DNA from: Eledone cirrhosa
Lineage: Eukaryota
Length of the DNA: 64,000 nt
Assembly: GCA_964016885.1 (NCBI GenBank)
Contig: OZ024751.1
Coordinates: 11,160,001 to 11,224,000, forward strand
Reading direction: 5' to 3'
Below are positions 3,122 to 63,130 of this stretch, one piece after another. The translations under genes were made by a program, and so were the position numbers. The notes below the pieces were generated by a model. That model ran no database searches and was not told where the DNA came from. It saw only the letters and a program-made list of their open reading frames with translations. Within the stretch, counting starts at the first letter, position 1. Every line of letters starts with the position of its first letter.

Positions 3122-3340
3122 TGCAAATGGGTAAATCTCCGGGTAACAAGGTCCGGTGGTGGAGAGAGATATGTAAGTGGGTGTACGTTGAGATGCGTGG
3201 TGTGTATAATATGTGTGAGATGTGTAGAATGAAGGGAAGAGTATAAAGGATAAAATAAAAATAACAACACAAGAGAGAGTTACCTTGGGAGAGATTTAAT
3301 AGTCCCTATATATTTCGGATTCACATCCATCAACTGGGGT

Positions 3341-3528
3341 TAGGAGCCATGCAATTTTGTAGAGTGGTCCCTCCACGCTCGATACGATGGGTCTGATTTT
3401 CAGGTCGGGTCCCTGTTTGTGTGTTTTCACGAGGTGGTAGAAGGCGGGTAGTCTGCTGTTCCTCGTGAGGAGGTTGTATCTCAGCTTCTTCGGGAGCTTC
3501 CGCCGGTCGCAGATGTTGGTCCAGGCGG
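3341..3528 (-). repeat. Duplicated internal RT segment of the PLE (copy of 1784-1971)
   Basis: taggagccat...gtccaggcgg matches 1784-1971 with about 3 substitutions. Confidence 0.92.
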
Positions 3529-4864: not shown

Positions 4865-6032
4865 TATTAGTACACAGACACAACACACACATACACACAC
4901 ATATATGTGTGTGTGGGTGTTGTTGTGTTGTGTGTGTGTATATATATATGTATATATATATATTCAACTTACTATGTAGTAAGCGCCGAAACATCTATGA
5001 TCCGTAGTAAACAGCTGATGAAGGGCCACTTTTCTTCTCTTGTTTATGTTCCTACTACCTTCTTACACTTTGTTTTCAGTTACCTCACAGCTTGCCTCTT
5101 TACGTGTGTGTGTGTAAACACACACACACACACACACATACATATATATATTTAGATACGTCTCTCTCTCTACATATATATATATATATTTATATATATA
5201 TATATGCATGTACAAATGCTTTTCCTCAAACCATTTTTACGTTCCCTTCTCTTGTCACTCTGTATGGTTTTCAATTCCATCTTTTATTCCTCATTTTAAC
5301 TGCTGATGAAAGACTAATGTCCGAAACAAAAATGCACTCTTCCTAATATATCGCTACAATGTACTGTATTGTTGACTTTGTTATACCCATTTATGTTTAG
5401 CATATATATATCTATACACACACTCACATATATATTTATATATATATATATATATATAATGTGTGTGTGTGTGTGTGTGTGTATATGTATGTATTAGTAT
5501 ATACATGTATGTGTATGTATGTGTGTATGTGTATATACATGTATGTATGCATGTACGTGTGTATACATATATATATAATATACATAACATGTAAGTGTGT
5601 GTACACGTAGTAGAATTGAGAAAAGAAAGTTAGAACACATTCACCATTGTGTTAGTGTACAGTTCTATGTTTCACATATAGCTATATACTGTAGTAAACT
5701 TACCGTACATAGTTTTCAGTACAGCTAATAGTATCACAAAGATCTACACATGGCCGCCATTTGGCTTCAGTCCATGTGATAATGCAATTTATAGCATACG
5801 TATATAGCGGAGATAGCCATGTATCTTTTACATATATCGCATATCTCCATTCAATATCGAATTTTCGAAATATTTAGCTTAAAATTGGGGCTTGCGACGA
5901 TATTAGTGGAAAACAAATATGTTTTAGCAGTTCCTAAATATGGCAGATGAACAGATATTTTAGATAATACATATTTATGTTGATATTTAATAAATGAATT
6001 AATAATTTGAACTAGATATAGAATGTATGTGC

Positions 6033-10601: not shown

Positions 10602-11056
10602 GAACGTGTATATGTGTGCAGAAGCGGATACTACAGAGTAAACACAAAGTTGACGATATGGCTTGACTGTGTAATGGAGTCTTGAGAAAACAAACGTTAT
10701 TTTTAACAAAGTTATCTTTTTTGGTCGCCATCTTCTATTTTACAAGAGATCCTTCGTTTGTCTGCCTCCATAGCTTTTGTCACTATTTAACTGTTTAACC
10801 AGTATCAATGTCTAATTTCACACCATCTCGATCAGAATGTTCGCAGGATATGCAGTTGTAATAATGCATTTAAGAGCATGAAAGTCCACCATTTTTAACT
10901 GTTCGGTGCAAATGTTTAGATCAAGCAAATATTTGCTAGTGTCAAGTTTCACCTTAGATGGGTGATGCAGTGAAATCTTCAAATGCTCTGTGCTCTCCAG
11001 CGTTTTACATTATGTGTATAGTGTATATGAATGGCTCAGTATATGTGTATGTGTGT

Positions 11057-11351
<295 letters not shown>

Positions 11352-11460
11352 TATATTATACACATATAGATATATATATATATATATAAAGAAAAAGGGA
11401 TGAAATAGAAAATGCAACTGAAGTCTTATTTTTTTTTAAAATATATATATTTATTTGGTT

Positions 11461-11498
11461 CCTTTACCTGTTTCGCAGTTCTTCTGCTTTTCAAAAGG
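11461..11498 (-). ncRNA. Minimal type I hammerhead, U3-A8 core variant
   Basis: CCTT-TTGAAAA-GCAG AAGAA CTGC-GAAA CAGG TA-AAGG. Confidence 0.7.
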
Positions 11499-12021
11499 TG
11501 AGTTGAGATGGAGGGTCTGTGGTTTTTTCTCACATCTGGTTGGTCTCTAAATGTTACTTGTTTTATATGGAAAAAGTGGCTCGAAAGCCAGGTTTTTCGA
11601 GAAGTAATTTGATTGGTTTGTCAATAATTATAATAAATTTCGCGCCAGTTCGCGTTACAATAGTTCTTCAAATAAGAGAGAGGGTGGGTGTGGGGGTGTC
11701 ACAGGTTGTTTTTTTCATATATGAGTGTTTGAATTTCTTTTTACTTGAAAAAATAAGGCTCACGAAGGCTTTTTTTTGGGTTGGTTATAAATGAAATGTG
11801 GCTGTCACGTGAACAAGTTTTCATTACATTTTTGCGCCCTTATTTGGAAAACTATTCTCTAGTCTTTATAGTGAATGTTATGACAATGGAGAGATAGTGG
11901 TCAAGGGGAAAAGGGATTGGGAGAAATGTTCTGGTTCAGTGAATATGGCCAGGTGTCAGAGTTCAGGTGTCAGAGTTCAGATTTTCTATTGAGACTGAAG
12001 ATATGTGTTTATTTGTGTGCT

Positions 12022-12066
<45 letters not shown>

Positions 12067-12535
12067 TGGAAGATGATTCTATTAGTAGAGATGGGGGGAG
12101 GGAGTTGGTGTGTGTGTATATGGGTGTTATGTGTGTGTGTGCGAGTATGTTAGATGGAGAGAATATATATTTTGTGTGTGTGTATATATATATGTGTGTA
12201 GGAAAGTGGTTCTATTAGTAGAAATGGGGAGGGTGTTGTAGGTGTGGGGGTTGTTATGTGTGTGTATGGGTGTTATGTGTGTGGGAGTATGGTTAGCATG
12301 TTAAGATGAAGAGTATATATATATATATTGTGTGTGTGTGTGTGTGTGTCCCCCCTCTCTTATTTGAAGAACTATTGTAACGCGAACTGGCGCGAAATTT
12401 ATTATAATTATTGACAAACCAATCAAATTACTTCTCGAAAAACCTGGCTTTCGAGCCACTTTTTCCATATAAAACAAGTAACATTTAGAGACCAACCAGA
12501 TGTGAGAAAAACCACAGACCCTCCATCTCAACTCA

Positions 12536-12572
12536 CCTTTTGAAAAGCAGAAGAACTGCGAAACGGTAAAGG
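12536..12572 (+). ncRNA. Minimal type I hammerhead, U3-A8 core variant (mirror copy)
   Basis: CCTT-TTGAAAA-GCAG AAGAA CTGC-GAAA CGG TA-AAGG; 1-nt deletion in the stem III loop. Confidence 0.6.
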
Positions 12573-12702
12573 AACCAAATAAATATATATATTTAAAAAA
12601 AAATAAGACTTCAGTTGCATTTTCGATTTCATCCCTTTTTTTTTATACTTCCACTCGTGTAGGACACCTCGGTTATTTTTCATTTTGTAAAAAAAACCTC
12701 AC

Positions 12703-12784
<82 letters not shown>

Positions 12785-12907
12785 TCTTTGTAATTATTAT
12801 TACTACTATATATACGTGTGTACATACATACGAACATATATACGTACAGATACACAGTTCTTTCTCTCCCTCTCTATACCCGTAACTCCCTGTATATATA
12901 TATATAC

Positions 12908-12946
<39 letters not shown>

Positions 12947-12957
12947 CATATATATAC

Positions 12958-12994
<37 letters not shown>

Positions 12995-13126
12995 CATATA
13001 TATTTATATATACATATATATATATACATATATATATATACATATATATATATATACTTATATATATATAATATATATATATATATACATATATATACAT
13101 ATATATATATATATACATATATATAC

Positions 13127-34114: not shown

Positions 34115-34445
34115 GGCACATGGCTTAGTGGTTAGAGCATTGGGCTTGCAATCGAAAGGTTGTGAGTTCAATTCTCAGTCCGGGTGATGTGTTGTTTCCT
34201 TGAGCAAGACACTTTATTTCACATTGCTCCAGTTTACTCAGCTGTAGAAATGAGATGATAGGGACTGGGATCCATATCATTCCACTACAAAGTGGTCGTG
34301 GAGGTGCCACGGCAAAAAGCACCCAGCACTCACTGTAAATGAGGTTGGTGTTAGGAAGGGCATGCAGCTGTAGAAATCAAGCCAGAATCAGTTGCCGTCC
34401 CACCCTTGCAAGCAGGGAAAAGCGGACGTAAAATGAAATGATGAA
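34115..34445 (+). mobile_element. tRNA-derived CORE-type SINE with LINE-like tail
   Basis: Box A TGGCTTAGTGG, box B GAGTTCAATTCT, CORE-like TCCTTGAGCAAGACACTT, tail ggttggtgttaggaagggcat...ggacgtaaaatga. Confidence 0.85.
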
Positions 34446-40463: not shown

Positions 40464-40514
<51 letters not shown>

Positions 40515-40518
<4 letters not shown>

Positions 40519-41015
40519 TATGTATACGTACATACATATGTGTATACATACGTACAGTAGTATGTATATATATACATACATGCACACACATATATATATA
40601 TGTACGTATGGGTTTAGCGAACATTTATTATAATGTTCGGTTTGTTTGTAAGCAAACAGCCCGAATTAAGCCGTACAGTGTTTAGCAACCAACGTTGCCC
40701 TTTTGTTCAACACTGACAAAGGAACACTGTACTAGTTTCAAGCTTATTAGCTATCGTCAGCATCGTATACCTCCCTGGTAGATGATTGAACGTCTGAAAG
40801 TATATACTTTCCTTATGCATATTAACGGCTGAGCAACCTAATTTGCATATCGAGTGAGTTAGTCGGCCGGGCGCACCGAAAACCGTAAATGGAAAAAAAG
40901 AAACGAAATTTCATTTCTCACTCACAGTACGGCTGTTACTTAAATATAAGTATGTATACGTACATAGATATATGTATACAGACGTACAATAGTATGTATA
41001 TATATACATACCTGC
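40515..41015 (-). mobile_element. Retrozyme-like element family G (~432-bp unit with ~70-bp terminal redundancy)
   Basis: taagtatgtatacgtacata...cgtaca.tagtatg at 40515 and 40947; homologous to 56605-57350; hammerhead at 40724-40766. Confidence 0.7.
40724..40766 (-). ncRNA. Minimal type I hammerhead (family G)
   Basis: ACGATG-CTGACGA-TAGCT AATA AGCTT-GAAAC TA GTA-CAGTGT. Confidence 0.75.
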
Positions 41016-41043
41016 ATATACATATACATATATATATATATAT

Positions 41044-56352: not shown

Positions 56353-56433
56353 GAGTGAGAGAGAGTGCGTAATTTTATATATATATATAATTTTATATAT
56401 ATATTTATATATTTATATATATATTTATATATT

Positions 56434-56464
<31 letters not shown>

Positions 56465-56479
56465 ATTTATATATATATA

Positions 56480-56584
<105 letters not shown>

Positions 56585-56604
56585 ATATATATATTTATAT
56601 TTAT

Positions 56605-57147
56605 AGAAAAACGGAAAAAATGAAACGAAATTTCATTTCTCACTCTTAGTACGACTGTTACTTAAATATAAGTATGTATACGTACATACATATATGTATA
56701 CAGACGTACAGTAGTATGTATATATATATATACATACATGCACACATATATATATATGTACGTAAGGATTCACCGAACATTTATTATAATGCTCGGTGTG
56801 TTTGTAAACAAATATCCCGTATTAAGCCGTAGTGTTTAGCAACCATCGTTGCTCATTTGTTCAACACTGACAAAGGAACTCTGTACTAGTTTCTAGCTTA
56901 TTAACTATCGTCAGCAGCGTATACCTTCCTGCCAGATGGTTGAACGTCTGAAAGTATATACTTTCCTTATGCATATTAACGGCTGAGCAGCCTAATTTGC
57001 ATATCGAGTGAATTAATCGGCCGGGGTACCGAAAACAATAAACGAAAAAAATGAAACGAAATTTGATTTCTCACTCTTAGAACGGCTGTTGCTTAAATAT
57101 AAGTATGTGTAGGTATACAGACGTACATATATATATATACATACATG

Positions 57148-57184
<37 letters not shown>

Positions 57185-57350
57185 GTATGGATTCACCGAA
57201 CATTTATTATAATGCTCGGTGTGTTTGTAAACAAACATCCCGAATTAAGCCGTGCATCCCGAATTAAGCCGTGCATGTATGTATATATATATACATACTA
57301 CTGTACGTCTTTATACATATATGTATGTACGTATACGTACTTATATATAT
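56605..57350 (-). mobile_element. Retrozyme-like element family G: ~1.5 head-to-tail units (~425-430 bp) plus an inverted terminal segment
   Basis: Direct repeats 56611/57042 and 56758/57181; ~57273-57345 is the reverse complement of ~56668-56741. Confidence 0.75.
56878..56920 (-). ncRNA. Minimal type I hammerhead (family G)
   Basis: ACGCTG-CTGACGA-TAGTT AATA AGCTA-GAAAC TA GTA-CAGAGT; intact core, palindromic ACTAGT stem III. Confidence 0.82.
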
Positions 57351-61391: not shown

Positions 61392-63130
61392 GTGTGGACC
61401 AGTGCCATACGGGCCCCCGAAAACCATGATGAACTAAAGAAAATGATTGCACATGCGGTGGGGGCCAGTATAAAACTAACCATTAAGGAACATATGTTCA
61501 TATTTAATGGAAAAACATATGCCCAAAAGGAGGGAGCAGCCATTGGTGATAGCATTGTAGGTGACATAGCTAACCTATTTATGGTATGGTTGGACAATAA
61601 ACTTAAAGAACAATTAGAAGACAACAACCTCTTAACCTTGACTATGTACTCCCGCTACGTTGATGATATAAACATCGTAGTAAAAACACTCCCACTAGAG
61701 AACAGTCAGGAATTAGAGAAAAACACAATGGAAAGCTTCCAGCAAATAGCTAACTCCATCCACCAGAGTATTAGAGTTACTATAGACTACCCAAGCAAAC
61801 ACCTCAACCATCGATTACCTGTCTTTACAAATCCTCCATTCCCATTATGCCAAACCCATGACTTCCAAATACCTGATCCACCGAAACTCAACTGTTTCGC
61901 ATCACACCAAAATCAACATACTGATTGCGGATATAGTACGGGTGATGAGAAACGTGTCCCGTATGTGCAACGCCAAAGAACTAGAGAGACACATACAACA
62001 CTTCATCCACTGTATGCAGTTCTCTGGTTACATTCAGAGAGATAAAATCAGAGTATATTGAACAGCCAGAACTAAATGGGAAAAAATGGTAAATAATGAT
62101 ACAAATGGGACCTGCCCCTTGTATAGGAGCAAATTTTGGAATAGAATAGAAAGAGCTAGGAATAAGGTTAATAGAATGGTATGATATCAATAAATACCAG
62201 GTTGTAATGTTCATCAATACAAACCCTAGGGGTGAACTAGGTTACAAATTTAGAAGGGCCCTAGATACACTTAAACTAAATATTAAGATAGTGGAAAGAC
62301 CAGGTACCTCCATAAAAACACTTATTAGAAATACATACCCTTTTCAAAGACCTCCCTGTATAGATAAGAAATGCATAATCTGTAAACTAAGCCCCCATAT
62401 TAACTGCAAAAGTAGAAACATTGTATATAGCATAAGATGTACTGAGGGACCATTTAAATATAAGAATATAATGTACATAGGTGATACTACAGCTCGTAGT
62501 ATAGGAGAACGATTAAATGAACAGTGGCGAGGGCTTCAAGATAGAAAAGACTCATCAGTACCCCACCAATATGCTAAAATAGAACATAAGGGCAAATTAG
62601 AGAACATAGAAATAAAAATAAAATCTACACAAAGAAAAAACGCAATGTTTAGACAAATCACAGAGACACTAAACATTAATGAACTTCAACCAAAATTAAA
62701 TAGAAAAGATGAATGGAATAGCTACATCACAACATACAATCAAGGACAAAATGGAAACACACACGCATAGAACAAACAACCAACTAGTAACATGTAAATA
62801 AACAAATAAATAAACAAATAAATACACACACAGACACCCGGATGTAACACATGCGCAAACTAAGCACACAACACACACAAAAACAATATGGCGCGAGACA
62901 GGACAAAGGAGAGGCACGAAAACAAAGAAAAGAATCCTCGGCCACTGATGAGGTCACAAAATGTGTGACGAAAGAACTTTGACAATATATGACCTACCAT
63001 GCGGTTGTGGATCCAACCAACCAACCGGAAATTTATAAATCTTTTTAAATTTATAATTTTATTTATAATAACGATATCGGTTTCAAGACACGTTTTCAGA
63101 TAAAGAATCTTGCTAAACAAATTCAGAAAT
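61392..63130 (+). mobile_element. Second, 5'-truncated and frameshifted Penelope-like element
   Basis: RT motifs YAQKEGAAIG..IANLFM, YSRYVDD, VTIDYPS; Cys linker CIDKKCIIC and GIY-YIG IVYSIRC..MYIG.T..RSIGER, RQITE..I....PKLN (62207-62770); hammerhead in the 3' UTR. Confidence 0.88.
62941..62983 (+). ncRNA. Minimal hammerhead in the PLE 3' UTR
   Basis: GCCA-CTGATGA-G GTCACA AAATG TGTGAC-GAAA GAAC TT-TGAC. Confidence 0.65.

Follow-up and report, generated by a model that had tools for sequence, protein, structure and literature searches.

An abundant hammerhead repeat of Eledone cirrhosa carries the insertion signature of Penelope-like elements

We analysed a 64,000-nucleotide stretch of the Eledone cirrhosa genome (hereafter the window) that holds two insertions of a non-coding tandem unit of about 430 nt, called Family G in an initial annotation and the hammerhead repeat here. 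In every genomic test that we ran, this repeat behaves as a passenger of Penelope-like elements (PLEs). It is most likely a new and very abundant non-LTR retrozyme, or non-autonomous PLE, and a candidate for the retrozymes proper. Probably a co-resident Neptune-type PLE supplies the RT/GIY-YIG protein that copies the repeat, and this protein probably acts in trans on the repeat RNA. So far, the case for mobilisation of animal retrozymes by PLEs has drawn only on their co-occurrence and on similarity to pLTRs. The retrozyme class itself was already known. In this genome, thousands of copies of an ORF-free, retrozyme-type repeat show all the hallmarks of PLE insertion, as do autonomous elements that reside with it, and this makes the question of mobilisation directly testable.

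Structure of the hammerhead repeat in the window

Features of the two loci are collected in Table 1. Positions within the unit are given in the ribozyme sense, with c1 the base right after the ribozyme cut and the 429-nt natural unit of locus L014 as reference. The unit is 420–430 nt long with a GC content of 0.37–0.39, and both protein coding and LTR structure are absent. As the initial annotation had stated, it holds no meaningful ORF, the ORF listing consisting of microsatellite-type peptides only, and the hairpins named there are present in the sequence. The first locus had been described as tandem over 56605-57350. About 1.5 units do lie at 56606-57256, but 57271-57346 is an inverted arm that had been overlooked, so that the whole locus (56606-57346) is a head-to-head pair of arms with ends B and A. 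The second locus, a lone arm with end A, had been described as one unit with a terminal redundancy of about 70 bp; it has 1.2 units, and the redundancy is about 95 nt. The two copies are 87% identical. We take the motif ATGCAAAT at c311-318 to be octamer-like and, by analogy with newt satellite 2, a putative element of an internal promoter.

Table 1. Features of the two hammerhead-repeat loci, in window positions
Feature	Position	Strand	Details
Main arm of first locus (L001)	56606..57256	-	1.5 head-to-tail units, 651 nt, period about 430; 5' truncation at c53; 3' end is distal fixed end B, at 56606
Type I hammerhead motif, first locus	56878..56920	-	CUGACGA from 56914; cut between 56884 and 56883
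Tail	56606..56665	-	59 nt, between proximal 3' end A (c216-219) and distal 3' end B (c272-275)
Arm-arm junction	57257..57277	.	19-nt duplication and microhomology
Inverted partner arm	57271..57346	+	c141-c216; stops at proximal end A into (TA)n
Left (TA)n target tract	56372..56605	.	second long TA-rich tract after 57346
Octamer-like ATGCAAAT	56995..57002	-	c311-318, upstream of hammerhead
Second insertion	40509..41036	-	single arm, 1.2 units; 5' end c126; 3' end A (about 40512) into (TA)n
Hammerhead motif, second copy	40724..40766	-	CUGACGA 40760; cut between 40730 and 40729

Conservation and predicted folding of the hammerhead

The motif of the first locus consists of helix I (ACGCUG/CAGAGU, where a single mismatch occurs at this locus), CUGACGA, helix II, GAAA, the palindromic A-CUAG-U and the GUA site. 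Core, palindrome and cut site had been recognised before; both hammerheads lie on the minus strand. The earlier label of a minimal hammerhead does not apply in the published min-HHR sense, because U.U replaces the conserved G10.1-C11.1 pair in 214/218 rows. Helix I has 6 bp and is predicted to continue beyond an internal loop; helix II is 4 bp long, and helix III has 2 bp and a palindromic loop. These sizes agree with those canonical for non-LTR retrozymes (helices I to III of 6, 4 and 1–2 bp, the last with a palindromic loop), in which 10.1-11.1 is G-C. As a comparison, the min-HHR of PLE pLTRs is described as having a long helix II (7–8 bp), a short helix I and a G10.1-C11.1 preceded by an extra base (Cervera 2014). 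The hammerhead repeat resembles it in the type I core, in the palindromic helix III that is predicted to work as a dimer and in AU-rich flanks, but differs in its longer helix I, shorter helix II and lack of G10.1-C11.1. There is one hammerhead at each of the two window loci, compared with several at the family loci L014 and L268.

In blocks from loci chosen without regard to the hammerhead, 82/92 cores are intact. The rate of mutation is 13/1,048 (1.2%) in the core versus 546/22,306 (2.45%) elsewhere (P = 0.009). When compared with the old L136 subfamily, conservation of the hammerhead is not significant (4/43 versus 42/265, P = 0.36). Helix I pair c396-c3 is U.G in 175 of 202 rows, G.U in 9, C-G in 6 and A-U in 3, which includes two-sided changes from U.G to G.U or A-U. 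The core conservation suggests ribozyme function.

Predicted folding of the monomer gave a value of -5.3 for the single-hammerhead fold versus -18.4 for the minimum-energy fold; the active fold is not adopted at minimum energy and the fold z is not significant. A monomer with a dimer-type motif is expected not to fold actively (Cervera 2014). Fold z-scores of the circular monomer range from -5 to -7, but these are inflated by a TA-like hairpin and are no evidence of a circle. An Rfam search matched no hammerhead family to the repeat, and we discarded its miRNA matches as AT-repeat noise. If the motif is active, it would cut as a dimer through the palindromic helix III and release monomers. In vitro, 8/9 predicted Xenopus retrozymes were reported without cleavage (Li, Clavereau and Pollet 2026, bioRxiv 10.64898/2026.07.22.740005).

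Abundance, arrays and subfamilies

Exact matches to a 19-mer from the hammerhead number 10,195 across the 3.0 Gb genome, compared with 0 for a reversed-pattern control. In a DNA search, top copies among the best 40 of 2,865 candidates were 94–96% identical to the window copy. Subfamilies were analysed on 417 aligned blocks out of 155 loci. There are two main subfamilies of overlapping age with median divergences of 1.7% and 1.4%, in locus samples that were drawn with exact patterns, mostly on contig C1, and that are biased towards young copies. Older tandem relatives of the unit, with 77–88% identity, occur at 7981-9500 of L136, where the hammerhead core is retained, and at 2401-2963 of L137. 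Pieces of the unit were also found in contigs of two other organisms, which indicates presence only.

Copies range from solo arms to arrays of at least 42 units. The longest (L266-L267, G000:C1:51.77-51.79 Mb) has higher-order repeats of three units and array-specific variants (339G, 354T and 25T). These private variants are atypical of dispersed copies, which argues that this array is not a master. At 580-4675 of L181 and 2544-4115 of L066, two unit variants alternate strictly (ABAB). We considered this alternation as a sign of dimer circles and rejected it; the internal variants are missing from the terminal units, which makes local duplication or assembly effects likelier, and the ABAB arrays are probably a local dimer duplication or an assembly effect. 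Some arrays of the hammerhead repeat were enlarged later by local duplication.

Fixed 3' ends, TA targets and inverted pairs

To describe the 3' ends, we used the first 96 of 100 listed hammerhead matches on C1, at 55 loci, with one segmental duplicate dropped and the local duplicates of L070 kept; this yielded 70 arms with a mappable 3' end. These ends fell at A in 31 arms, at B in 27 and elsewhere in 12. End A ranges over c209-224 (mostly c216-219) and end B over c262-278 (mostly c275), the two sites being 59 nt apart. A TA flank follows directly after 52/58 of the A and B ends, and this targeting of (TA)n microsatellites is as in Neptune/Naiad. In non-LTR retrozymes, target-site duplications, when present, are longer than 4 bp; TA tracts as targets mask such duplications. 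Genome-wide, we counted 3,946 cases of B followed by TA and 4,999 in which the sequence continues past B into another unit, with 0 for the controls. The A-end pattern was found 1,736 times (control 192), which is a lower bound since it suits one subfamily only.

The initial annotation had taken the end points to be circularly permuted. By contrast, the 3' ends in the window are fixed (B at 56606, A at about 40512 and 57346), and 58/70 arms of the genomic sample stop at one of the two sites. The argument from permutation for a circular template therefore falls away. Fixed 3' ends, which the initial annotation had named as counter-evidence, point to PLE target-primed reverse transcription, and not away from a retrozyme. 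The retrozyme-type reading holds for a non-coding, hammerhead-bearing tandem retroelement, but not for permuted ends.

The two ends are paired in a specific way. From 91 B ends at 89 loci (L160 duplicate dropped), 4 were unmapped and one further duplicate was taken out, leaving 86 mapped B arms, and 41 of these have an adjacent inverted arm. The partner ends at A in 36/41 cases, elsewhere in 5/41 and at B in 0/41. The probability of this B-A pairing, were the ends independent, is 1.6e-10. A-A inverted pairs exist too (L010 and L023, in the first sample). With 36 partners at A and 0 at B, this distal-proximal rule constrains the mechanism of PLE integration quantitatively.

Unlike the 3' ends, 5' ends are scattered broadly across the unit. 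An accumulation at the ribozyme cut was hinted at by the first 30 loci and was not upheld in the larger sample, where 4 ends were observed versus 3.0 expected at c425-c6, and 7 versus 8.6 expected within c420-c20. A tally by eye of 100 rows (one local duplicate dropped, rows other than truncations continuing through indels) gave about 60 truncations, with 5 at c427-c3 versus 8 expected. The median length of 122 arms is 378 nt; 46 exceed one unit, in agreement with the longer-than-unit insertions noted initially, and 7 exceed two units.

We compared this syntax with that of the autonomous PLEs of the genome. A GIY-YIG search, in which the best 150 of 10,596 candidates were scored, gave some frames of 600–1,100 aa. 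Six PLE proteins were scanned, with RVT_1 in 6/6 and GIY-YIG in 4/6. The CX2-5CxxC linker, a feature given for Neptune/Nematis (Craig et al. 2021, PMC8557442), is present in 5/6 PLE families of the genome. For one co-resident PLE protein, the nearest relatives with a name come from bivalves and from records labelled as bivalve symbionts. PLE families A, B and D have two 3' ends some 40–65 nt apart into (TA)n and form long/short inverted pairs. This two-end, inverted-pair syntax was seen in autonomous PLEs at L067, L084, L131, L135, L116, L138, L141 and L226, and the PLE-A 3' motif alone occurs 8,101 times in the genome. As an internal control, the same two-end syntax in co-resident autonomous elements shows that the hammerhead repeat is inserted with PLE syntax.

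Template and source of the two arms

Results from comparing units and arms show that those of one insertion are related. The pairwise distance is 2.7% for tandem units, 3.8% for inverted arms and 5.9% between loci, and rare variants are held in common at 31%, 12% and 1.2%, respectively. Agreement at subfamily-diagnostic sites is 0.93 for tandem units and 0.92 for inverted arms, compared with 0.56 between loci, and discordant comparisons (<0.7) number 5/49 for tandem units and 5/53 for inverted arms. At L268, the seven monomers of the two arms are within 1 nt of one another and 4 nt away from two other young insertions. L014, L196 and L091 are mosaic insertions. The shared variants indicate a single source for both arms, as expected from one circle or one homogeneous multimer. 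Local duplication (L181, L066 and the long array) and gene conversion make this signal less clear, and the concordance between arms could also be due to gene conversion or to bursts within one subfamily.

Both the insertions longer than a unit and the 5' ends, which ignore the ribozyme cut site, indicate that the templates were circles or uncut multimers. We put the circle at slightly short of an even chance, and the uncut multimer is a substantial possibility as well. The more specific idea of a ribozyme-made circle of about 425 nt, with rolling RT by a Neptune dimer that initiates two cDNAs on that one circle, one fixed site per (TA)n break end, is tentative. If true, it would be direct genomic evidence that PLEs use animal retrozyme circles as substrates, and a single model would account for both the PLE tail and the inverted arm.

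The strongest competing explanation is that PLEs mobilise the repeat strictly from uncut multimers of a few master arrays, with a weak or idle hammerhead and circular RNA absent. This overlaps with our preferred explanation, the template being the sole difference, and we regard it as a serious contender, though somewhat below even odds. It agrees with the lack of a surplus of 5' ends where the ribozyme would cut (4 against an expected 3.0), with the atypical helix II base, with the existence of long arrays and with variants that are common to only some units across arms (L014, L196); ribozyme cleavage was also dispensable for a PLE in vitro (Frangieh 2024, PMC11167929). Against this, the single private haplotype in all units and arms of L268 demands a source that was already homogeneous, the core conservation suggests function, and the 42-unit array is not a master.

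In our preferred explanation, that of a retrozyme copied by a Neptune-type protein, the RNA would be made from tandem loci, possibly under an internal promoter that lies upstream of the hammerhead. Acting probably as a dimer, the PLE protein would cut both strands of a TA tract, and each cut end would prime cDNA at one of two internal starts, c216-219 or c272-275. The two cDNAs would be templated by the same RNA, or by RNAs of one source. Both would pass the ribozyme site for a random length before microhomology joining yields single arms or head-to-head pairs. As a comparison, a PLE RT in vitro has two internal start sites that delimit the tail, and a PLE protein, predicted to be dimeric, acts on AT-rich DNA, where both strands are cleaved and extended (Frangieh 2024, PMC11167929). 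As the two putative RT start sites are defined to the nucleotide, PLE assays in vitro could use the 430-nt RNA directly as substrate.

Search for a parent among autonomous elements

Alternatively, the repeat could be ordinary debris, made up of 5'-truncated pLTRs from an autonomous PLE, with the ORF-bearing copies lying outside our sample. The insertion syntax is indeed entirely PLE-like, PLE hammerheads are described as mostly sitting in such debris (Cervera 2014), and about 155 loci were examined out of thousands. However, arms that cross the unit start enter the previous unit and not a 3' UTR, and 46/122 are longer than the unit. PLE protein matches occur at 13/155 loci, none of them joined to an arm, and in agreement with the initial annotation no arm in the loci sampled runs into an RT/GIY-YIG ORF. 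Among arms cut near the unit start, no common foreign flank was seen in 43/43 rows. No third continuation past end B was found in 100 of 221 rows, which is a weak test since the pattern caught mostly read-throughs. Common sequence beyond B ends comes after TA runs of varying length and is part of other TA-seeking repeats. There is also no long match of the repeat to six PLE 3' regions, and arrays of 42 or more units are ORF-free. Given these data, we consider pLTR debris unlikely.

The tail has short, AT-rich matches to the ends of PLE-A (P = 0.003) and PLE-B (P = 0.017), within 18 tests. The motif common to the tail and PLE-A is at the proximal end of PLE-A, but at the distal end of the hammerhead repeat. 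Two candidate parents were rejected. L137 looked like a PLE with the unit as its pLTR, but this arrangement results from nested insertion into the TA tract that follows a PLE-A proximal end, and the PLE fragment of L230 lies 370 nt upstream of an arm without a hammerhead and is not joined to it.

Spread as a satellite at the DNA level, through extrachromosomal circles or TA-tract recombination and with an incidental hammerhead, would suit the clear local amplification (the ABAB arrays of L181 and L066, the higher-order repeats of the 42-unit array) and the TA-like tracts inside the unit, but is largely refuted by the strand-specific polarity of fixed 3' versus random 5' ends, and is very improbable given also that end B lies outside any TA-like part of the unit, that inverted arms pair B with A and that RT-encoding elements have the identical syntax.

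Several PLEs of the genome carry motifs of their own. In the abundant families A, B and C (3' regions of L126, L132 and L143), a degenerate hammerhead-like fold precedes the 3' ends, with a core of UUGAAAA or UUGAUAA, GAAA or GCAA, a palindromic CCGG and UA. Upstream of this fold, PLE-A and PLE-B have repeated CCAAT and GGCGCGAAA/GGCGCAAAA motifs, which we take to be E2F/NF-Y-like. The young family PLE-D (L129, L130, L139, L141, L269-L288), with 97–99% identity among top copies, has a hammerhead with a canonical core, U.U at the helix II base and a 4-nt helix III palindrome, as in the hammerhead repeat. PLE sequence also occurs in the window. An inverted pair with a PLE-A (Neptune-type) 3' end, its distal end into TA, lies at 11040-13048 (+; motif at 12612). 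A broken PLE ORF at 564-1888 and 3332-3445 (-) shares 54% identity with the L136 protein, which is linker-less (Penelope/Poseidon-type); this ORF lies 37 kb or more away from the hammerhead repeat.

Comparison with known systems

The hammerhead repeat is like the metazoan non-LTR retrozymes described from coral, mussel and axolotl/newt in having a short, low-GC (37–39%), non-coding tandem unit with one type I hammerhead, thousands of copies from solo units to long arrays, a strongly self-paired predicted circle and co-resident PLEs (Cervera and de la Pena 2020, PMC7229834). Its 420–430 nt fall within the retrozyme size class of 150–450 bp and low GC. Non-LTR retrozymes are characterised by self-cleavage and by abundant monomer RNA, both linear and circular. 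The hammerhead repeat differs from them in the U.U at the helix II base. For Xenopus retrozymes, a sister pLTR was reported for 24/57 families (Li et al. 2026, bioRxiv 10.64898/2026.07.22.740005), whereas none was found for the hammerhead repeat among the PLE 3' regions compared. The taxa given in that study are 31 vertebrates, three insects and a coral. Within the portions of PMC7229834 and bioRxiv 10.64898/2026.07.22.740005 that were covered, no fixed RT starts, TA targeting or inverted-arm pairing are reported for retrozymes.

Insertions of Neptune-type PLEs, as described in parts of PMC8557442 and PMC11167929, have two 3' ends, a tail confined to one end, truncated 5' sides, partial tandem copies, an inverted arm, a microsatellite target and a hammerhead upstream of the 3' end, all of which apply to the hammerhead repeat. 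By contrast with these elements, it has no ORF, its tail is 59 nt versus 30–40, and the complete element is the size of a pLTR and is itself repeated. In the loci sampled, it lacks the RT plus GIY-YIG ORF that lies between the pLTRs of an autonomous PLE. The non-autonomous Chlamys PLEs, such as MRC1 of Chlamydomonas, are similar in forming multicopy head-to-tail insertions by PLE machinery; they have 3' sequence in common with their autonomous family, and most of them are without canonical hammerheads (Craig et al. 2021, PMC8557442), whereas the hammerhead repeat has a hammerhead and only weak 3' resemblance to PLEs.

No cephalopod retrozyme was found in the literature searched, which was mostly open papers, and the family may stand in Repbase/Dfam as Penelope or unknown. 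The terms "octopus" and "cephalopod" occur 0 times in the main text of Cervera 2020 (PMC7229834), whose supplement might list cephalopod repeats, and hammerhead, ribozyme and retrozyme occur 0 times in the portion covered of the Octopus vulgaris repeat annotation PMC13282606.

Other motifs in the window

An unrelated second hammerhead repeat (CUGAUGA, 7-bp helix II, GAAA-GAAC-UU) lies at 62930-63130 (+) and ends in (TA)n; its family was also seen at L018, L022, L030, L110, L128, L141 and L144. By pattern alone, further CUGANGA..GAAA matches are at 5303 (+), 49656 (-) and 6992/6997 (both strands, in a long palindrome). At 34120-34179 (+), a tRNA-like head follows a TA tract, and this element is probably a tRNA-derived SINE.
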